This document shows, piece by piece, positions 54,776-64,000 of a DNA stretch of 64,000 nt. The DNA is taken from NCBI GenBank assembly GCA_022711655.1, contig JAKLEM010000005.1:4956-68955 (forward strand), written 5' to 3'. The notes beneath the pieces are model-generated. The model searched no databases, was not told where the DNA came from, and saw only the letters and a program-made list of their open reading frames with translations. This stretch comes from Candidatus Auribacterota bacterium. Its GTDB lineage: Bacteria > Auribacterota > Ancaeobacteria > Ancaeobacterales > Ancaeobacteraceae. Position 1 is the stretch's first letter, and each line of letters opens with the position of its first letter. The position numbers and the translations under genes are program-made.

Positions 54776-56080
54776 TCAGCAGTACAGCGTGACAGCCGTG
54801 GCCCTTCTCACTTCTTTCACGATACTTTTGCCCGCCAGTGCCGCAGCGTCTTCGAGAACAGCGATCTTGTTTTGCCGCGTCCTGCCGGTCATGCGCGCAG
54901 GATTACGCTTGCTTGCGCCTTCGACCAATATCTCTACTTGCGACCCGACAAGCGCCTGATTCTTTTCCGCGCTGATCTTCTCCTGAAGCGCGAGCAGCGC
55001 CTGGTTTCGCTCCTCTTTCACCTTCAGAGGCACGTCATCGGTCCTGCCTGCCGCTGCCGTCCCCTCTCTCGTCGAATACTTAAAGATATATGCGCTATCA
55101 TATGCAATCAAGCGCATTACCTCAACCGTTTTCTGGAAATCATCTTCGGTCTCGGTCGGATACCCAACGATGATATCGGTGCTCAGCGCGATCCCCGGAC
55201 ACCTGTCGCGCAGCTTCGCGACAATATCCAGGTAATGCCCGGCCGTGTATTTCCTGTTCATCAGGGAGAGGATCCTGTCGGAACCGGCCTGGATCGGAAA
55301 ATGTAAATACTCGCACAGTTTTGGCAATTGGCCGAACTGCGCAATGAGCTCTGCGCTGATATCTTTCGGGTGCGACGTAACGAAGCGGATCCGCTCGATG
55401 CCGGCAATATCGTTCAAGTGTTCGAGCAACCGCGGGAACGTCGCCTTTGTGTCGCCAAGCCCCTTTCCGTACGAATTGACGTTCTGTCCAAGAAGCGTCA
55501 CCTCTTTGCACCCGCCGTCGGCAAGCCGCCGCACCTCAGAGACAATATCTTTCAACGGCCTGCTCACTTCTCTGCCGCGCACGTACGGAACGACGCAGTA
55601 TGAACAATAGTTGTCGCATCCGCGCATGATCGGCACCCACGCCTTAAGCATACCTTCACGCACCGCGACCGATTGGTCGACCGGATACTCGTCCATGACG
55701 GAGACGTCGATCAGGTACTCGCGGTTTTTGCGGGCCTGTTCGATCAGTTCAGGGATCCTTCTTATCTGCTGTGTCCCGCAGACGAAATCGAGAAAGGGCA
55801 GCGTCTTGAAGAGCGCCTCCTGATGCTTCTGCGCCATGCACCCGCAAAACCCGAGAATAAGCTCCGGCCGCTTCGCCTTGAGCTTCCCCAGTTCCCGCAT
55901 CTTCCCGATCGCCTTGTTCTCCGCCGAGAGGCGAACCGAGCATGTGTTGAGGATGATGACATCCGCAGCGTCTTCGCGATCCGTCGGCGCATACCCGGCA
56001 GCAGCGAGAAGCCCCGCCATCACCTCGGAATCAGATTCGTTCATCTGGCAGCCAAAATTTTTTATATAAACTTTTTTCAT
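54776..56080 (-). CDS. miaB: tRNA-2-methylthio-N6-dimethylallyladenosine synthase
   Basis: FGCQMNESDSE, LNTCSVR, radical SAM GCDNYCSYCVVP, LLGQNVNSY and a TRAM domain. The first 10 codons are AT-rich and supplied by the inserted element. Confidence 0.98.
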   Translation of the reverse strand: MKKVYIKNFGCQMNESDSEVMAGLLAAAGYAPTDREDAADVIILNTCSVRLSAENKAIGKMRELGKLKAKRPELILGFCGCMAQKHQEALFKTLPFLDFVCGTQQIRRIPELIEQARKNREYLIDVSVMDEYPVDQSVAVREGMLKAWVPIMRGCDNYCSYCVVPYVRGREVSRPLKDIVSEVRRLADGGCKEVTLLGQNVNSYGKGLGDTKATFPRLLEHLNDIAGIERIRFVTSHPKDISAELIAQFGQLPKLCEYLHFPIQAGSDRILSLMNRKYTAGHYLDIVAKLRDRCPGIALSTDIIVGYPTETEDDFQKTVEVMRLIAYDSAYIFKYSTREGTAAAGRTDDVPLKVKEERNQALLALQEKISAEKNQALVGSQVEILVEGASKRNPARMTGRTRQNKIAVLEDAAALAGKSIVKEVRRATAVTLYC

Positions 56081-56123
56081 ATCTCATTAATTATAAACAA
56101 GATGCAATCCTGTATAATACTGT

Positions 56124-56585
56124 CTAAAACTGCTCAAAAGATGAGAAACTGGAATCGATCCCTTTTTGTACCGCATATTTCCATTCCATGAGTTTCTCTA
56201 TGTCATTAACTGTAAAAACCGGATAATTTCTGTAATCACGCTTTGGTTTAACCCAGCCTTTTTGCATCCAGTAATATATCGTCTGTCGATGAACTCTCAA
56301 AACTACCGCTGTCTGTGTTAAGTTGTATCTTTTGCTTTTATCAGCTTTCTTGTCGCACTTGCGAAATATCTTCTTATCATTATCATCTATCTGCCGCTCT
56401 ATCTCCTCCTTCTTTTCTATTTTCTCGGCCAACTTTCTCGCCTGATAGCACTGACGGAAATAGGCAAGCATTTCGATGCCCTTCTCAAAACGCTGCTGCT
56501 CTTCACTGCCATACGGATAAACAGTAACGATATCCCAACTGTCATTGCGGACGACCAGATCTTTGTTCTTCCTCTCAAAGATCAT
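56124..56585 (-). CDS. Small protein with a C-terminal MerR/excisionase-like HTH, unit 1
   Basis: YNLTQTAVVLRVHRQTIYYWMQKGWVKPKRDYRNYPVFTVNDIEKL fits a winged HTH of the MerR/Xis type; N-terminal half unknown. Confidence 0.7.
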   Translation of the reverse strand: MIFERKNKDLVVRNDSWDIVTVYPYGSEEQQRFEKGIEMLAYFRQCYQARKLAEKIEKKEEIERQIDDNDKKIFRKCDKKADKSKRYNLTQTAVVLRVHRQTIYYWMQKGWVKPKRDYRNYPVFTVNDIEKLMEWKYAVQKGIDSSFSSFEQF

Positions 56586-57708
56586 TTCTGTCAGTTCCCG
56601 GCCAGATCAGGTCGTAGCAAACGCTGCGTCCCTTGCCTGGCAGTTGTCGCAAGACTTTTTTCTCCAGCATATCCGCGATCTCGCGGAATGCGGTCGCGCG
56701 GCTGGTACGCGTCATACTCACATATTTTCGCGTCGTCAGGCCGCCTTCGAAATTGCCGATACCGGCTTCAAGGATCCGATTTATGACCTTCTTTTGCCGC
56801 TCGTTCAGCTGTATCTGGGCATGCTGGTTCCAAAAATCGGCTCGCATTAACACGCTGACAATAATATCCCTCGAATGTTCGATGGACGCCGTAACGCACG
56901 TTATAAACCATAGAAACCATTCCGTCACGTCGAGGCGGCATCTCTGAACTTTCTCGATGATCGAATAATACTCCTCGCGCACTCGCATGATCTCCGAAGA
57001 AACGCTGTAAAACCTGACAGTCAATTTCTCGTCCTGAGCCAACGCCATGTCAGTCAGCGCCCTTGCCAATCGGCCATTCCCGTCTTCATACGGATGTATC
57101 GTCAGAAATCGCAGGTGAGCTGCCGCAGCACGCAGTATACCGTCCATGTGTCTCGAAGAGGATACATTCCACCATTCGAGGAAAAGCCGCATTTCTTCAT
57201 CAAGGCGGTCCTTCGGTAAGGCTTCGAAGTGGATCTTCTCCCTTCCTACCGGGCCGGATATGACCTGCATCGGTTCATTGCCTCGAAGAGCGCCCGTCGC
57301 GATCTTTGTTAAGCCGGAATAACCGGTTGGAAACAACGCCGCATGCCAGGCATTCAGCCGTTTCAGCGTCAGCGGCTTTTCATGAGCGCGAACGGCATCC
57401 AGCAGCACATCCACAAGCCCGTCAATGTTCCTGTCGTGCGGGCCGACACCACGAGGAAGGCCAAGATTTACCGCAACGGATGATCGGACTGTGTCGCGAT
57501 TGAGGCGCTGCCCTTCGATCTCGGCGGTACGCACCGCCTCCTCGACCAGGACGGCTCCCTGCGCCTCGGTCTCGAGTTTGATATCAAGAGAGGAAACGCG
57601 GCCCAACAGTTTACCCTGCAGGATCCGTAGCTGGCTGAGCGGTTTCAGCAAAGCCGCTTCATCATATTTGAAATCAAACCAGTTCTTCCGTTCCCAGATG
57701 TATTTCAT
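56575..57708 (-). CDS. Fic family protein (DUF4172-type N-terminus, class II), unit 1
   Basis: Canonical Fic motif HPYEDGNGRLAR, inhibitory-type motif TAEIEG and a C-terminal HTH (SRATAFREIADM). Start revised to MKYIWERK at 57708. Confidence 0.92.
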   Translation of the reverse strand: MKYIWERKNWFDFKYDEAALLKPLSQLRILQGKLLGRVSSLDIKLETEAQGAVLVEEAVRTAEIEGQRLNRDTVRSSVAVNLGLPRGVGPHDRNIDGLVDVLLDAVRAHEKPLTLKRLNAWHAALFPTGYSGLTKIATGALRGNEPMQVISGPVGREKIHFEALPKDRLDEEMRLFLEWWNVSSSRHMDGILRAAAAHLRFLTIHPYEDGNGRLARALTDMALAQDEKLTVRFYSVSSEIMRVREEYYSIIEKVQRCRLDVTEWFLWFITCVTASIEHSRDIIVSVLMRADFWNQHAQIQLNERQKKVINRILEAGIGNFEGGLTTRKYVSMTRTSRATAFREIADMLEKKVLRQLPGKGRSVCYDLIWPGTDRNDL

Positions 57709-57925
57709 CTCTCGAGTCTCCGCTGAAGCGATTAAGCATCGTAATCGCTTCACTATTTGATACGATTATAACTCTAAAGGTTCCGTGAAGCAAGCATTAT
57801 TAACAAACAAAGTAAAAGCGGCAGATAGATACGTATCTGCCGCTCTGTCCGTCACTCATATGTATTATAGACTCACAATCGCCCTAGCAATCCTCTCCAT
57901 AGTCGTGCTATACCGCATCCATCGG

Positions 57926-57958
57926 TCAGCCAAAATTTTTTATGTATACTTTCTTCAT
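57926..57958 (-). pseudogene. miaB: Spare miaB 5' replacement fragment (MKKVYIKNFG*) carried by unit 2
   Basis: ATG AAG AAA GTA TAC ATA AAA AAT TTT GGC TGA versus functional ATG AAA AAA GTT TAT ATA AAA AAT TTT GGC TGC: three synonymous and no non-synonymous changes before the junction. Confidence 0.8.
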
Positions 57959-58001
57959 ATCTCATTCAGCCTAAACAAGATGCAATCCTGTATAAAACTG
58001 T

Positions 58002-58463
58002 CTAAAACTGCTCAAAAGATGAGAAACTGGAATCGATCCCTTTTTGTAACGCATATTTCCATTCCATCAGTTTCTCTATGTCATTAACTGTGAAAACCGG
58101 ATAATTTCTGTAATCGCGCCTTGGTTTAACCCAGCCTTTTTGCATCCAGTAATATATCGTCTGTCTATGAACGCTCAAAACTACCGCTGTCTGTGTTAAG
58201 TTGTATCTTTTGCTTTTATCAGCTTTCTTGTCGCATTTGCGAAATATCTTTTTGTCATTATCATCTATCTGCCGCTCTATCTTCTCCTTCTTTTCAATTT
58301 TCTCGGCCAACTTTCTCGTCTGATAGCACTGGCGGAAATAGGCCAGCATTTCGATGCCCTTCTCAAAACGCTGCTGTTCTTCACTGCCATACGGATAAAC
58401 AGTAACGATCTCCCAACTATCATTACGGACGACCAGATCTTTGTTCTTTCTCTCAAAGATCAT
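58002..58463 (-). CDS. MerR/excisionase-like HTH protein, unit 2
   Basis: 153-aa paralogue of 56124-56585 with about six substitutions. Confidence 0.7.
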   Translation of the reverse strand: MIFERKNKDLVVRNDSWEIVTVYPYGSEEQQRFEKGIEMLAYFRQCYQTRKLAEKIEKKEKIERQIDDNDKKIFRKCDKKADKSKRYNLTQTAVVLSVHRQTIYYWMQKGWVKPRRDYRNYPVFTVNDIEKLMEWKYALQKGIDSSFSSFEQF

Positions 58464-59586
58464 TTCTGTCAGTTCCGGGCCAGATCAAGTCGTAGCAAAC
58501 GCTGCGTCCCTTGCCTGGCAGTTGTCGTAAGACTTTTTTCTCCAGCATATCCGCTATCTCGCGGAATGCGGTCGCGCGGCTCGTGCGCGTCATACTCACA
58601 TATTTTCGCGTCGTCAGGCCGCCTTCAAAATTGCCGATACCGGCTTCAAGGATCCGGTTGATAACTTTCTTTTGCCGCTCGTTCAGCTGTATCTGGGCAT
58701 GCTGGTTCCAAAAGTCGGCTCGCATCAACACGCTGACAATAATATCCCTGGAATGTTCGATGGACGCAGTGACGCACGTTATAAACCATAGAAACCATTC
58801 CGTCACGTCAAGGCGGCATCTCTGAACTTTCTCGAGGATCGCATAATACTCCTCGCGCACTCGCATGATCTCCGAAGAAACGCTGTAAAACCTGACAGTC
58901 AATCTCTCGTCCTGAGCCAAAGCCATGTCAGTCAGCGCCCTTGCCAATCGGCCATTCCCGTCTTCATACGGATGTATCGTCAGAAATCGCAGGTGAGCTG
59001 CCGCTGCACGCAGTATACCGTCCATGTGTCGCGAAGAGGATGCATTCCACCATTCGAGGAAAAGGCGCATTTCTTCATCAAGGCGGTCCTTCGGTAAGGC
59101 TTCGAAGTGGATCTTCTCCCTTCCTACCGGACCGGATATGACCTGCATCGGTTCATTGCCTCGAAGCGCGCCCGTCGCGATCTTTGTTAAGCCGGAATAA
59201 CCGGTTGGGAACAACGCTGCATGCCAGGCATTCAGCCGCTTCAGCGTCAGCGGTTTTTCATGAGCGCGAACGGCATCCAGCAGTACATCCACAAGCCCGT
59301 CAATGTTCCTGTCGTGCGGGCCGACACCACGAGGAAGGCCTAGCTTTACCGCAACGGATGATCGGACTGCATCGCGATTGAGGCGCTGCCCTTCGATCTC
59401 AGCGGTACGCACCGCCTCCTCGACCAGAACGGCTCCCTGGGCCTCGGTCTCGAGTTTGATATCAAGAGAGGAGACGCGGCCCAACAGTTTACCCTGCAGG
59501 ATCCGTAGCTGGCTGAGCGGCTTCAGCAAAGCCGCTTCATCATATTTGAAATCAAACCAGTTCTTCCGTTCCCATATGTATTTCAT
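58453..59586 (-). CDS. Fic family protein, unit 2
   Basis: Paralogue of 56575-57708 with HPYEDGNGRLAR intact and about six amino-acid differences. Start 59586. Confidence 0.92.
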   Translation of the reverse strand: MKYIWERKNWFDFKYDEAALLKPLSQLRILQGKLLGRVSSLDIKLETEAQGAVLVEEAVRTAEIEGQRLNRDAVRSSVAVKLGLPRGVGPHDRNIDGLVDVLLDAVRAHEKPLTLKRLNAWHAALFPTGYSGLTKIATGALRGNEPMQVISGPVGREKIHFEALPKDRLDEEMRLFLEWWNASSSRHMDGILRAAAAHLRFLTIHPYEDGNGRLARALTDMALAQDERLTVRFYSVSSEIMRVREEYYAILEKVQRCRLDVTEWFLWFITCVTASIEHSRDIIVSVLMRADFWNQHAQIQLNERQKKVINRILEAGIGNFEGGLTTRKYVSMTRTSRATAFREIADMLEKKVLRQLPGKGRSVCYDLIWPGTDRNDL

Positions 59587-59803
59587 TTCTCGTATCTCCG
59601 CTGAAGCGATTAAGCATATTATTCGCTTCACTATTTGATACAATTATAACTCTAAAGGTTCCGTGAGGCAAGCATTATTCATACACAAAGTAAAAGCGGC
59701 AGAGAGAAGCGTATCTGCCGCTTTGCCCGTCACTCATATGTATTATAGACTCACTAACGCCTTAACAATCCTCTCCATAGTCGTGCTATACCGCATCCAT
59801 CGG

Positions 59804-59857
59804 TCAGCCGTAGGTCTTGAGGCAGACTCTGCTATTCCTCAATATGTTTGTGTGCAT
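59804..59857 (-). pseudogene. miaB: Displaced original miaB 5' end (MHTNILRNSRVCLKTYG*)
   Basis: Reads ATG CAC ACA AAC ATA TTG AGG AAT AGC AGA GTC TGC CTC AAG ACC TAC GGC TG|A. Joined at GGCTG to the miaB body it gives V-x-L-K-T-Y-G-C-Q-M-N, the MiaB N-terminal consensus. Confidence 0.75.
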
Positions 59858-59976
59858 GATGTTATGTAATCATTCTTTAGATATTCATCGGATCCTGCAG
59901 ATGAACGAATCCGACCATGGATAAACCGAAGGACTGAGGAAATTATACAACATACCCTGCGAAAAGTAAGGTTATC

Positions 59977-62900
59977 TTATGCGGCATCGCCCATCGTACG
60001 GGTATTCTCCTTAATGCGTTGGATCTCGTCGCCAAGGGGCTTGGGCAGCGGCGCTAATGCCCCTTCCGATAGCGCCTCCATCCCGTTCGCGATCGCATCC
60101 AAGGTCATTTCCATCCCGATGAGAACCGAACGGCTGACACGCTTCGCTTTCACCATACGCTCGCATTGGCAACGCTCGAGCGCAAGCCGCGATGCCATGA
60201 CAACACGGTCCACCATTGCCAGTGCCGCCGCGCGGTTCGGGTGATCTTTTGCTTCGCGTATCTTCGTACGCGCCGCCTCTGCGCCGTCGACCAGCCTGTT
60301 GAGCGCTGCCTCATCGCCGTTCCTGATCACGCGCGCCAGGATCGAAAGCGGTATCCCGCGGCCGCGCCGCCCCCGCCATTTTCCCCCTTCTTCCTTCATC
60401 AGCTCGGCAAAACGGCCCGCATCCGCGACCTGGCCGTATATCTCGAGCGCAATGTCCCCGCGCTCCCACACCACCTTGCCCTTATGCGAGAACTCCGATT
60501 CGGCGGTGCGCCATTTGCCGCTCACCATTTCGCCTGCGGCATCGGCCATTGGAGATAGTTTAACCTCGGCTCCCGTCTTCTCTTCCTTCAGCATCGTCGG
60601 GTCGCAGGTGAGCAGATCGCAGCCGGGGACGTCCCGCGCTTTGACCTTTACGATACTCACGAGCTCACTTTCCAGCATGCCGGCAAAGGGCACGGCCGGA
60701 CGTGAAACATGTATCGCGCTACGGCCGTCTGCGGTCGTCCTGACCCGCACCAGCGCGGCACCGGCAAGCGTGTGTTCATCGCCATCGACCAACAGCATCA
60801 GCCGCTGGTTCCGGTCCGTCAGCACGCTCGCGATGCCCCTCAACTTGCCGATAGACCGTCCCCATACATTTACCGATTCATGTCCTTGCGCGACCCAGCG
60901 CACGTGATCGATGTTCGCCGTCTCATACGCCTTCATCGTGTAGGACTTACCCCATTGTTCGTAATACGGCTTATTCCATGCGTCCCAGAACGCCTCCTCA
61001 CCCATCGACGTTCGATCCCAGCCCCTCGCGCGCCGGCCGCCGTACGTGCCCTTCAGCGACTCCGTTATCGCCGCTTTCAATAGTTTCACTTCCACTTTGT
61101 ATTCGCAGTCCTTCATCACCTGCATCAACCCATACATCCAGTTTATCCGGTCCGGCCGTGATTCGTCTTCCATCTCTTCAGTTGGCGCCACCTTGAACTC
61201 ATTTTTCAACGCGTCCCTGTATGCAACGTCAATCTCCCTAGCCATTGCACCGGCGTCCGCGTACTCCCTCTCGCACAGTTTCGCAAACACATCCTTCTGA
61301 GCGTACGATACCACCATCAGCTTCTCGATCGCGAGCAGCGCATCCCGGCCCTTCATCCCTTCCAGCAGCGCCGCGTTGGCATCAAGGAATGCGGATGCCT
61401 CTTCGCCATGCGCCGACAGGTGCGCCAGCGCCGCGTACAGCCGGCCGATCTCCATATCGCGCTCATTCACGTCTTCGATCGTCATCATCTCGCGCAGGAT
61501 CTTCCTGAGCGCCTCCTTCCCCCCGTCGCCTGCACGCCACGATACCAGCGTCAGCGGCAGCAGCAGGAACCCTTCGAAATCACTCAACTCTCCTTCCCAA
61601 TATACCGCCTCGCGCGCCAACGTCGTATTCTCTTCGTATATGGCCGCAAGTGACGCTTCCAACCCCTGTAACGACATCCGCCACAGCCCCGCATCGGGAT
61701 GGCTGTCCAGCTTCGCCGGAATCGCCAGATCTCCGGCCTCGAAGGGGCTTCGTTCCTCGTCTTGCTCCGCCGCCCGGTTGATATCCTTGACGATCTCGAC
61801 CAGGCCCTTGCCCTTCAGTCCGCTCTCCTGATACAGATACGCGACATCGTTCAGGGCCTCTTGTATCCGCTTGTCTCCTTGCGCAAGTTCGCGCAACGGT
61901 TCCCACGCCATCATCTCCCTCCCGACCCCCAGCCACGGATAATTACCCGCAAGCCCGCGCCTCAGCTCGCTCTCCATCTCGTTGTTGCCGAGGTCGTCCA
62001 TCAGGAACCGGTAGATCATGCCTTTGCCGTCGATGATCTGTTTCAGAATCTCGGCTGCCGACGGCGCCGAGAAGACCTTTTTCAGGAACTCGTCGTCCTT
62101 CATCTTCTCAACCGTGCCGGGAGGATATTTCCCCAGCCACGTCACGTACTCCACTTCCTTCTTCCCGCCCCCGATCCGCAGCGGCCGGTACTCGGCCTGG
62201 TAGAGCTCCGAGTAGGTGAACGGCAGTTCGGCGAACATCACCGTATCCGCACCCGTCAGCGATATCCCCGTCCCGCCGCTGTCGATACCCGCCACCAAGA
62301 CCTTTAAATTACTCTCTTCTTTGTTGAATGCGATCTTGTGAGACTCCTGCGCATCTTCGCTTACGCCGCCGTACATCTTCTCCGCTTTGCCCAGTTTTTC
62401 CTTCTTCAGCCGCTCGTCTATCGCCTCCTGCAGCCGCTCGACCATCCAGCGGTGCTTCGCGAAGATCAGCACCTTCTTCCCCGCCTTCACGCGCGCCACC
62501 ACCGCATCGGCCAGCCTCCCTATCAGCGGCGACTCCCCCTTTCCGCCCACCATCTTCGGGTCGGCCATCGCCTGCAGGATCATCTCCAGCTGGACCATCG
62601 GGTTGAGCCCTTCTATGTCGAGCTTCTCGTCCTCTTTCGTCGTCCGCAACGCGTTATACCTTTCCGCCCACCCCTTGAAATCGTCGATCATCGACTTGAT
62701 GATCTCTACCTGTTCTTCGCTCAGGTCGTACATCCCTTCTTTTTGCGGCTCAATGTCGACCCTCTTAGGCCGCCACGGCGTTTTGCCGTCGCCGTGGAGT
62801 TTCTCGTCGTACTCGGCGAATACCTCGCTCTGGCGGCGGCGAAGCATGACTTTTGCGAGTTTCTGCTTCAATACAACCAGTCCGCCGATCTTCACCTCTC

Positions 62901-64000
62901 CCCGCCCGACGATAAAGTCCGTCTTGAACTTCTCGAACGACCCCTCGTATTGATCGAGGTACGACAGGAGCGAATACAAATGCTCCGGCTTGTCGTGATA
63001 CGGCGTCCCCGACAGGAGCCACCTTCTCTGCGGCTTGATCTGACGTATCGCCGCCGCCTGCTGGACGGTGTCAGACGGGCTGTCCGCCTTCTGCACCTCA
63101 TCTATGATCGCCAGCTCGATCCCCGGGAAGAGATCTTTTATTTCCTGGCTCTTCCGGATTTCCTGTGGGTAAATTGCTTGTAGTAATGACTTGTTCAAAT
63201 CCTTTAGTTCCTGATCAGTAACGGCATTCGCATCGCGCAGATGACTATCTAAGAGCAGTTGCATATCGTCTGACAGTAGAGACTTAAGCTCATCAGTAGT
63301 AACCCTTTCAGGAAAATCACGCATTCGTAAAACATCATTAAATGCTGCTATAAATGCTTCTTCTGAAACCGTAGATAACTGCTCAGTCTTTAGACCAAGT
63401 TTTTCAAGAATGATTATATCAGCTTTCTTATTGTCTTTAAGTGAGTTACAAAGCAATTGAGCGTTTAAATCACCCACTAAAAAGTCAGAAGACCCTATTT
63501 CCTTTTCACTCCTGCCCCGCAGGAACTCGTAATTCACAATGAGGTAGCGCGCTTTTCCCATCCGCTTCGCGAGTGCATCAAACATCTTCGCGTCCTTCTC
63601 CGCCTCCTTCAGCTCATCGCTGTCGACGATGCAGACTTCTTTGTCTTTGCGCCCGGTAAAGTCCTTGATGATGCTCGCCCAGGTCCGTTTCACGCGGTTC
63701 GGTGTGACGATCAGGACTCGCTTGAGATTCAGCTTCTCCGCAGCAGCAACCGCCTGGAACGTCTTCCTCATCCCCTGCTCGTCCGCGAGGATCGCCTTGT
63801 CGTGCCCGGCAAGGAACTGCGCTCCCCTTCTCTCGTACTCCAGCATCTTCGTTTCAAGGCCATTTACCTTGAACGACCGCACCTGCGCATAGTGCGCGGC
63901 TACCTGCTCGCGGATACGCTTGATGAGCTCTTTTTGCTCCCTATCCCCGCCGGCCTTCTGCAGTTCTGCAAGGGCCTCCTCGAATGCCTGTCCCTGGTCC
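59977..64000 (-). CDS. Very large SNF2-family helicase/ATPase-domain protein, 5' end outside the window
   Basis: ILADEQGMRKT (motif I variant), IIDEVQ (II), LLSGTP (III), MLRRRQ, LIFAKH, GTGISLTGA (V) and YQAEYRPLRIG (VI). I checked that the frame is open from 63882 to 64000, so the protein is over 1340 aa. The C-terminal ~650 aa are unrecognised. Confidence 0.85.
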   Translation of the reverse strand, partial: DQGQAFEEALAELQKAGGDREQKELIKRIREQVAAHYAQVRSFKVNGLETKMLEYERRGAQFLAGHDKAILADEQGMRKTFQAVAAAEKLNLKRVLIVTPNRVKRTWASIIKDFTGRKDKEVCIVDSDELKEAEKDAKMFDALAKRMGKARYLIVNYEFLRGRSEKEIGSSDFLVGDLNAQLLCNSLKDNKKADIIILEKLGLKTEQLSTVSEEAFIAAFNDVLRMRDFPERVTTDELKSLLSDDMQLLLDSHLRDANAVTDQELKDLNKSLLQAIYPQEIRKSQEIKDLFPGIELAIIDEVQKADSPSDTVQQAAAIRQIKPQRRWLLSGTPYHDKPEHLYSLLSYLDQYEGSFEKFKTDFIVGRGEVKIGGLVVLKQKLAKVMLRRRQSEVFAEYDEKLHGDGKTPWRPKRVDIEPQKEGMYDLSEEQVEIIKSMIDDFKGWAERYNALRTTKEDEKLDIEGLNPMVQLEMILQAMADPKMVGGKGESPLIGRLADAVVARVKAGKKVLIFAKHRWMVERLQEAIDERLKKEKLGKAEKMYGGVSEDAQESHKIAFNKEESNLKVLVAGIDSGGTGISLTGADTVMFAELPFTYSELYQAEYRPLRIGGGKKEVEYVTWLGKYPPGTVEKMKDDEFLKKVFSAPSAAEILKQIIDGKGMIYRFLMDDLGNNEMESELRRGLAGNYPWLGVGREMMAWEPLRELAQGDKRIQEALNDVAYLYQESGLKGKGLVEIVKDINRAAEQDEERSPFEAGDLAIPAKLDSHPDAGLWRMSLQGLEASLAAIYEENTTLAREAVYWEGELSDFEGFLLLPLTLVSWRAGDGGKEALRKILREMMTIEDVNERDMEIGRLYAALAHLSAHGEEASAFLDANAALLEGMKGRDALLAIEKLMVVSYAQKDVFAKLCEREYADAGAMAREIDVAYRDALKNEFKVAPTEEMEDESRPDRINWMYGLMQVMKDCEYKVEVKLLKAAITESLKGTYGGRRARGWDRTSMGEEAFWDAWNKPYYEQWGKSYTMKAYETANIDHVRWVAQGHESVNVWGRSIGKLRGIASVLTDRNQRLMLLVDGDEHTLAGAALVRVRTTADGRSAIHVSRPAVPFAGMLESELVSIVKVKARDVPGCDLLTCDPTMLKEEKTGAEVKLSPMADAAGEMVSGKWRTAESEFSHKGKVVWERGDIALEIYGQVADAGRFAELMKEEGGKWRGRRGRGIPLSILARVIRNGDEAALNRLVDGAEAARTKIREAKDHPNRAAALAMVDRVVMASRLALERCQCERMVKAKRVSRSVLIGMEMTLDAIANGMEALSEGALAPLPKPLGDEIQRIKENTRTMGDAA

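Follow-up and report, generated by a model that had tools for sequence, protein, structure and literature searches.

How does a single housekeeping gene come to have three starts, one of them unlike the other two? The question is raised by miaB, which encodes a tRNA-modification enzyme, in a stretch of 64,000 nucleotides (nt) from a Candidatus Auribacterota bacterium (assembly GCA_022711655.1, contig JAKLEM010000005.1, positions 4,956 to 68,955 of the forward strand; hereafter the window). The genome that it belongs to, here G000, is a metagenome-assembled genome (MAG) of 56 contigs and 1.62 Mb with an estimated completeness of 74.8%. Taking the reading as a whole, we consider it likely that window positions 56049-59804 hold two non-autonomous cassettes of a large integrative-element family, which targets the TG of a cysteine codon in miaB and depends on a large serine recombinase (LSR) acting in trans.

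Comparing the window with itself, we observe a self-match at an offset of 1878 nt that spans approximately 56044-57931, with two tandem units of 1878 bp each (56049-57926 and 57927-59804) that are 95.2% identical, with 90 substitutions and no indels. Both units encode, on the minus strand, a class II Fic protein and a MerR-type helix-turn-helix (HTH) protein of 153 aa, followed by the miaB start MKKVYIKNFG. The plus strand reads CAGCC at all three junctions (J1, 56049-56053; J2, 57927-57931; J3, 59805-59809), which on the minus strand is GGC TG, a glycine codon and the first two bases of a cysteine codon. Past GGCTG, J1 continues as CCAGATGAAC into the functional miaB and J2 and J3 as ACCGATGGATGCGG, with the starts at J2 and J3 both terminating at TGA. 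The 1878-bp period, the GGCTG at three junctions and the three miaB starts had been reported in a first-pass annotation made from the letters alone, and both our reading of the sequence and the self-comparison bear them out. The features of the locus, with P and P' denoting the right and left arms of a cassette and B' the miaB body, are as follows.

54776-56080, minus strand: functional miaB, 434 aa (open reading frame, ORF; Pfam UPF0004, Radical_SAM and TRAM)
56049-56050, minus strand: J1 crossover dinucleotide TG, where right arm P1 meets the miaB body (B')
56081-56123, minus strand: spacer from the HTH stop to the miaB ATG (phased 8-mers and a TTATAC-16-TATAAT promoter-like site)
56124-56585, minus strand: cassette 1 HTH gene, 153 aa, MerR-type winged HTH (wHTH; Pfam MerR_1/HTH_17; N-terminal three-strand sheet, long helix)
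56575-57708, minus strand: cassette 1 cargo, class II Fic, 377 aa (Pfam DUF4172 and Fic)
57709-57926, minus strand: cassette 1 left arm P', beginning ACCGATGGATGCGGTATAGCACGACTATGGAGAGGAT (terminator-like hairpin at 57815-57846)
57927-57928, minus strand: J2 crossover, P2 joined to P'1, an attP-like tandem joint
57929-57958, minus strand: spare miaB start of cassette 2, MKKVYIKNFG then TGA (ATG AAG AAA GTA TAC ATA AAA AAT TTT GGC TGA)
58002-58463, minus strand: cassette 2 HTH gene (96% amino acid identity to copy 1)
58453-59586, minus strand: cassette 2 Fic gene (ORF and Pfam)
59587-59804, minus strand: cassette 2 left arm P' (promoter-like TTGCCT-17-TATAAT at 59671-59643)
59805-59806, minus strand: J3 crossover, an attL-like joint between the displaced 5' arm and P'2
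59807-59857, minus strand: displaced miaB start MHTNILRNSRVCLKTYG then TGA (compared with the MiaB N-termini of relatives)
59895-59915, plus strand: inverted relic of the miaB B' half-site, CAGATGAACGAATCCGAC, encoding QMNESD (inverted repeat I6, 16/17 matches)

The functional start at 56080 reads ATG AAA AAA GTT TAT ATA AAA AAT TTT GGC TGC CAG ATG AAC, and its codons 1-10 (56051-56080) are contributed by cassette 1. The spare start differs from it by exactly three changes (AAA>AAG, GTT>GTA and TAT>TAC), all of them synonymous, as had been noted in the first pass. A simple tandem duplication could not have supplied the third, different start, MHTNILRNSRVCLKTYG at 59857, and this argument of the annotation stands. 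MHTNILRNSRVCLKTYG ends [ILV]-K-T-Y-G in frame on the core and fits the KxYIKTYGCQMN of 19 relatives, a match to a MiaB N-terminus that is far above chance expectation. Each cassette carries a replacement 5' end for miaB, as the annotation proposed, consisting of an in-frame start and N-terminal codons, with the displaced start left at the far joint. That displaced start would be the earlier start of the chromosomal gene or else an arm that remains from an older insertion, since decayed. The second option is raised by the relic at 59895-59915, which is located some 40 nt upstream. Both mismatches of the relic over 19 nt fall at synonymous third positions, and it abuts a P'-like CCGATGAAT on the opposite strand (59880-59897). 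It may represent a decayed head-to-head joint left by an older rearrangement, in which case the start at 59857 may not be ancestral; a comparable inverted piece was found in one locus only (L117), and none of the recombination schemes that we tried yields the inverted piece cleanly.

GC content is approximately 0.58 in the miaB body and falls to 0.37 at its 5' end. The miaB ATG lies 43 nt beyond the HTH gene in each unit, and the hexamer 13 nt upstream of it reads TATAAT in copy 1 (56093-56098) versus TAGGCT in the spare copy (57971-57976); nowhere do the units differ more densely than in this -10 hexamer. Furthermore, J2 is a hybrid, in which the copy-2 start with its AAG, GTA and TAC variants is fused to the copy-1 left arm, with the first copy-specific base 39 nt beyond TG. 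J2 is therefore a true tandem joint of a copy-2 right arm and a copy-1 left arm, rather than a circle joint or a strain bubble.

With respect to other genomes, a scan of genome contigs with the single HTH protein gave no matches, and a scan with an HTH alignment succeeded. The resulting survey covers 126 loci, 80 from metagenomes and 46 from named genomes, with sites scored by script (L denotes a locus and G a genome). The element family that the first pass had proposed to define by database search proved to be large. HTH homologues are numerous (50-60% identity, about 130 aa) and mostly named as Omnitrophota, and in the first three contexts viewed they are immediately followed by a UPF0004/Radical_SAM gene. 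A crossover site follows 76-289 nt downstream in 88 of the 100 full-length HTH genes with downstream room, fused to miaB (CQMN) in 44 and to a P' arm (TG/RCC..., the slash marking the joint) in the other 44. The sites are on the HTH strand in 180 cases versus 1 on the other, with no more than five per locus.

More than 100 contigs, unrelated to one another and differing in cargo, show this architecture. Two loci, L023 and L027, the latter with a 4.85-kb element, show the three-part arrangement of the window with unrelated cargo (a two-component system with TrkH, HNH, a 455-aa ORF). In L023, three starts (displaced KVFIRTFG/WPLVAL, spare KKVYLKSWG/stop-PMVVL and the functional one) bound two elements of very different cargo. 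The strongest single result comes from a pair of loci in separate assemblies of the same kind of groundwater sample. L131 (766-1609) and L068 (1-844) are 100% identical over 844 nt up to GGCTG, beyond which L131 enters miaB and L068 enters a class A P' arm with a CHAT/TPR gene behind it; the two thus show the site occupied in one case and unoccupied in the other, to the exact dinucleotide. Together with the recurrence across the family, this divergence from TG onward upholds the proposal of site-specific integration at the Gly-Cys codons of miaB.

The position of the exchange can be narrowed further. The joints of L023 read GGCTG/G, GGTTG/A and GGTTG/T, and the identity common to joints is GGNTG only; since the variable base N moves with the left arm, the exchange falls in or just after TG. 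The consensus of attP-type joints is ...AAAGTnTTyATnnnnACnTTyGGn TG RCCGWTGG..., with the dyad CGGC-TG-GCCG, and a core limited to GGNTG and such a dyad are both typical of serine integrases with a 2-bp crossover. The P' arms group in classes, of which the window has class A (RCCGATGG.TG.G.TATAG....GACTATGGAGAGGAT), also present in the Omnitrophota contigs L023, L042, L047, L065, L068 and L081. P' resembles the miaB side of the site (ACCGATGGAT versus CCAGATGAAC).

Which enzyme performs the exchange? In three genomes of the same phylum (G007, G017 and G062), a 488-567-aa protein with Resolvase, Recombinase and Zn_ribbon_recom domains, i.e., an LSR, is encoded directly upstream of and overlapping the miaB start, with a 60-aa version of the HTH at the opposite end of a 4-5-kb segment. 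Related LSR-bearing elements at the same miaB site were found in G007, G017, G062, L162 and L163, the gene order in Margulisiibacteriota being small HTH, LSR, P arm and miaB. At that position L027, L101, L110 and L119 have LSR genes that are truncated or lack internal parts. The autonomous HTH-LSR modules are flanked by inverted repeats, comprising the LSR 3' end and the miaB start, that end exactly at TG, and the far repeat copy runs into a P' arm, so that an inverted attP results. These repeats are 100% identical over 177 bp (G007), 208 bp (G017) and at least 141 bp (G062) in the three Auribacterota-like genomes. The coordinates of the repeats, those of two Margulisiibacteriota genomes included, are as follows.

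L036: 3913-4089 and 8109-8285
L037: 18-225 and 4905-5112
L038: 6581-6721 and 10800-10940
L162 (Margulisiibacteriota): 1-208 and 1879-2087
L163 (Margulisiibacteriota): 126-374 and 2041-2290

In L162 and L163 the repeats are 92% identical, which argues against an assembly artefact. Contigs with such repeats tend to end just past them. In the recombinase frame, the P' arm of cassette 1 reads DRWMRYSTTMERIARAIVSL and then a stop, and the two window arms read DRWMRYSTTMERI(A/V)(R/K)A(I/L)VSL and then a stop, with no recombinase in front. The DRWMRYSTTMERI... tail is homologous to the tail that is in frame with LSRs elsewhere, where P' tails read DPWVVFY... (G007), DDRWCKYRVMILG... (L110) and GRWLRYRGTMERI... 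(L065). The P and P' arms of the window are homologous to the arms flanking LSR-bearing elements, the recombinase gene itself being absent from the cassettes, and the recombinase of the family is probably an LSR. Its relatives in viral contigs are prophage integrases at 29-37% identity only. As no recombinase gene was found in the window or in G000, we read the window units as non-autonomous cassettes that would need an LSR in trans. Of the self-sufficient mini-island described in the first pass, integration into miaB therefore holds and autonomy does not.

Under this reading, the attachment site is the TG of the Cys codon in the MiaB motif ...K-x-[FYWL]-G-C-Q-M-N. A cassette consists of the left arm P' (TG/RCCGATGG...), cargo and a right-end module, the cargo here being a predicted class II Fic AMPylase with its own terminator and promoter in front, and the module comprising the MerR-type HTH gene, a spacer (phased 8-mers and promoter-like site) and the arm P, which is a surrogate miaB start. 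Recombination of the cassette P-TG-P' with the current miaB start would place the cassette upstream, remake miaB as P-TG-(C)CAGATG and leave the previous start behind, ended by TGA. Since P mimics the displaced arm, the rebuilt start would again be a target and cassettes could stack, in which case the miaB-proximal copy 1 would be the newest insertion. The LSR would be supplied in trans, autonomous relatives having a small HTH, the LSR and P at the same position. The sequences show the anatomy, its recurrence across the family, the crossover position and the polymorphism of occupancy among relatives; the enzyme, mobilization in trans, the HTH role and the order of insertion are inferences from them.

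The alternative that survives best concerns the doubling alone and not the nature of the element, namely that one cassette integrated and the second copy arose by duplication in situ, followed by 5% divergence, either through unequal sister-chromatid exchange at the GGCTG joints or through a recombinase-mediated attL x attR-type exchange. The copies are equal in length (1878 nt), without a single indel, and have the same gene content, which fits this alternative, and tandem pairs of related cassettes occur elsewhere too (L124, with the same P-arm peptide and 85.6% identity). Against this, synonymous divergence (dS) between copy 1 and copy 2 is 0.147 in Fic and 0.191 in HTH, and a dS of 0.15-0.19 would demand long coexistence of a 1.9-kb direct repeat that started at 100% identity, a kind of repeat that is normally lost fast. 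The ratio of nonsynonymous to synonymous divergence (dN/dS) comes to 0.05 in the Fic gene and 0.08 in the HTH gene, with a non-coding divergence of 9-12%. The displaced spare start would be useless, yet its changes are synonymous in three of three cases (by our estimate a 1-2% chance outcome), and the tail-coding stretch of P' shows conservative changes only (A/V, R/K, I/L). In addition, differences between the copies are evenly spread, with no conversion tracts. The purifying selection that the annotation had read from the spare start is thus supported there and extended to both genes. Divergence under selection fits two separate acquisitions from a cassette pool, and we favor two acquisitions with divergence while each copy was in use elsewhere; duplication in situ seems rather unlikely.

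A far less probable alternative is that the 130-153-aa HTH protein is itself a recombinase or transposase-like enzyme and that the cassettes are autonomous. The HTH gene is the one gene in nearly all recombinase-less cassettes and always adjoins the right arm, and its N-terminal motif VYPYGSEEQQ, with an invariant Ser27, is superficially like the serine-recombinase IYxRVSTEDQ. We modeled the protein with AlphaFold2 from 27 homologues (mean predicted local distance difference test score, pLDDT, 82.7), obtaining a three-stranded sheet, a long helix at residues 28-65, a second helix and a MerR-type wHTH. The model lacks a resolvase-like alpha/beta fold, and Foldseek matches in the PDB cover the wHTH only (RacA, GlnR, BldC, CueR), so that a recombinase fold is excluded at the level of the prediction. 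A cut-down serine recombinase was accordingly rejected on predicted fold, despite the likeness of YPYGSEEQQ to YIRVSTEDQ. Furthermore, some cassettes have no HTH gene (the 455-aa cassette of L023), and the autonomous relatives pair the 60-aa HTH version with a full LSR.

We therefore return to non-autonomous cassettes, in which the HTH gene accompanies unrelated cargo and is thus a backbone gene. Of 160 arms, 23 have phased 8-mers of the form TWAKACAS, 10 nt apart, at 70-100 nt upstream of the crossover, versus none in shuffles; those of the window, TTAGACAG and TTATACAG, are 10 nt apart and overlap TTATAC-16-TATAAT in copy 1. We infer that the HTH protein is a DNA-binding accessory, acting as a directionality or architectural factor or as a regulator of the cassette-borne miaB promoter. 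The Fic protein combines an intact motif HPYEDGNGRLAR (HxFx(D/E)GNGRxxR) with an inhibitory TAEIEG of the (S/T)xxxE(G/N) type in the same chain, which by sequence fits the definition of a class II Fic, with AMPylase activity predicted. This cargo is not common to the family, because Fic proteins in other cassettes gave only two distant matches (24-34% identity). The HTH as an antitoxin of Fic was considered and rejected, given that the same HTH backbone occurs with unrelated cargo and that Fic has its own inhibitory helix. The idea that Fic and HTH form one functional unit did not survive, the HTH belonging to the cassette backbone rather than being a partner of Fic.

Slighter still is the chance of an assembly artefact, namely a false tandem built from strain variants of a single cassette. 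G000 is a fragmented MAG, and the two 100% matches are other assemblies of the same organism broken in the repeat, one of which (L121) has an identical miaB-proximal end before its contig stops. The hybrid J2 carries copy-specific bases within about 60 nt on either side, which no strain bubble or excised circle gives, and independent assemblies of family members show tandem arrays as a rule. Least credible of all is an ordinary conserved HTH-miaB operon whose repeats arose by homologous recombination or duplication of native DNA: a great many genomes have the HTH upstream of a miaB-type gene, and a same-order relative without the Fic-HTH unit starts miaB with MSNKVYLKNLG (similar to MKKVYIKNFG, not the same), but half of the HTH genes precede a truncated start joined to a P' arm rather than miaB, arrays contain unrelated cargo with joints at one dinucleotide, L131 and L068 diverge exactly at TG, and the cassette GC content of 0.37-0.55 departs from the 0.56-0.63 of the host.

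Several observations weigh against reading the window as two inserted cassettes of this family. No close relative with an empty site was found among the 40 nearest genomes or in a search of 5.8 billion proteins, the best miaB being 68% identical (from a Candidatus Ancaeobacter, Auribacterota); the collection used holds 79 species genomes of the phylum. No serine recombinase was detected in the window or in all of G000 (tblastn with three LSRs; PF00239), and no helper element was found in this 74.8% complete genome. The P' tail-coding frame in the window has no upstream ORF. Mobilization of the two copies is therefore only presumed, and the cassettes may be fossils. Finally, the best HTH homologues (60% identical) are in Omnitrophota and the host is Auribacterota-like, which leaves mis-binning of the contig a small residual probability. 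The first pass had also named as contrary evidence any close relative whose miaB already starts MKKVYIKNFG without the unit; none was seen, with the nearest miaB only 68% identical.

Regarding the origin of the contig, mutS, a kinase-like gene of 553 aa and the miaB body show conserved synteny with G001, a relative of the same family, so that the contig is host DNA. The cassette HTH, the P arm (KKVYIKNFG) and the P' class of the window are all Omnitrophota-typical, and an Omnitrophota-type cassette in an Auribacterota host suggests, as far as sequence can tell, exchange between phyla. Each of the two nearest relatives has a gene directly upstream of miaB (G001, L035 5845-6786; G003, L040 upstream of 1462); the product in G001, which starts MSRPLRIEYPGALYHVTARGNER, we take to be an IS200/RAYT-like Y1 transposase. 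G001 also has an HTH remnant 2.4 kb upstream of miaB, and its miaB start resembles LSR-type P arms (..TYEKSAPRKVYIRTYG). Upstream of the displaced start in the window, a gene for a 3101-aa protein occupies 59977-64000 and continues to C45:74237, with the contig ending 370 nt past its start. The N-terminal approximately 1700 residues of this protein form about 17 tandem repeats of about 100 aa (consensus ...DHTFKELKQDLIDQIGPE.GKTG.DAW.RSDAAVK.IL.AIKDE.CGGDANKM...), followed by an SNF2-type helicase core. Within this giant helicase gene, GC content dips to 0.38 at 63200-63500, with flanks at 0.55-0.60.

Among known systems, the closest analogue for stacked recombinase-less modules is provided by the staphylococcal cassette chromosome (SCC) elements, including SCCmec, and the pseudo-SCC islands at rlmH (orfX), which are moved by the large serine recombinases CcrAB and CcrC. 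They share with the miaB cassettes an LSR-type recombinase, one fixed site at the end of an RNA-modification gene that is left intact, tandem stacking and recombinase-less modules that keep their att arms. However, SCC elements enter the 3' end of rlmH, where no surrogate start is needed, whereas the miaB cassettes enter a 5' end, within a Cys codon of the Fe-S motif, bring a conserved HTH gene and a promoter-like site together with the replacement start, can be smaller than 2 kb and occur in uncultivated phyla. Cis-mobilizable elements (CIMEs), the tandem accretion of ICESt1/ICESt3 in Streptococcus thermophilus and tycheposon satellites are likewise presumed to be mobile in trans. These are also recombinase-less, bounded by the att sites of a helper and accumulated in tandem at one site, but they involve tyrosine recombinases and gene 3' ends or tRNA genes, with no replacement of a gene start. 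The likeness to integron cassettes is functional only (small recombinase-less units in one orientation on a fixed platform), as the miaB cassettes have no IntI or attC-like hairpin, carry their own promoters and a backbone gene, and use a housekeeping start as platform; their P/P' arms have a TG core, and the associated recombinases are of the serine type, which places them outside the integrons.

For the target itself, phage JC1 integrates in the 5' end of rimO, with a serine recombinase gene by attP and a new ATG that keeps the frame, and in related Burkholderia multivorans prophages the integrase gene partly overlaps rimO (PMC9144972). JC1 thus resembles the miaB cassettes in using the 5' end of a MiaB-family methylthiotransferase gene and in supplying a start, but it is a complete 61-kb phage with its own recombinase, an 18-bp overlap and a single copy in a proteobacterial rimO, and arrays or recombinase-less cassettes are not reported for it. 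A Polaromonas element in rimO is cited in PMC4482086. SXT/R391 integrative and conjugative elements (ICEs; prfC) and dusA-specific islands also enter a conserved gene at its 5' end, for which they substitute sequence of their own (PMC4482086). They differ in having tyrosine integrases, longer identical cores, the format of large autonomous ICEs or prophages and no mini-cassettes. The window units, with Fic and HTH only and miaB as target, do not belong to SXT/R391; the comparison with prfC drawn in the first pass is apt for 5'-end restoration and fails for the enzyme, which is most likely an LSR and not a tyrosine integrase. Literature searches combining miaB with attB, serine recombinase and genomic island gave no report of miaB as a target, in agreement with what the annotation had supposed.

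A wider reading, which we put forward only tentatively and with more doubt than the cassette reading itself, is that the miaB start serves as an integron-like gene-capture platform run by LSRs in Omnitrophota, Auribacterota and Margulisiibacteriota. Both arms would mimic the target, P resembling the displaced start and P' (RCCGATGGAT) resembling CCAGATGAAC, and every joint of an array would therefore look like either an attP or an attB. Insertion, excision and reshuffling of recombinase-less cassettes could then all proceed by a single reaction that needs the integrase only, with no classical directionality switch. By keeping the LSR tail-coding arm and the HTH factor, cassettes may complete or control a neighboring helper recombinase, and the window would show a cassette pool crossing a phylum boundary.

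If the proposed working is true, there would be a widespread system by which candidate phyla that resist cultivation capture accessory genes and stack them, undescribed in the searchable literature, with Fic proteins, CHAT proteases, nucleases, two-component systems and toxin-like genes among the cargo seen in the family. The window would be its minimal form, a recombinase-less tandem pair in a phylum outside the main reservoir. The finding also accounts for short orphan ORFs with a miaB start and for the recurrent annotation of a "MerR regulator upstream of miaB". The site recognized by the recombinases is short and falls within a coding motif of high conservation, and natural cassettes are smaller than 2 kb, both of which may be of interest for integration tools. 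For the organisms themselves, mobile DNA would serially replace the N-terminus and the promoter of MiaB, an essential-type tRNA-modification enzyme, so that the miaB start would stand as a record of past insertions.

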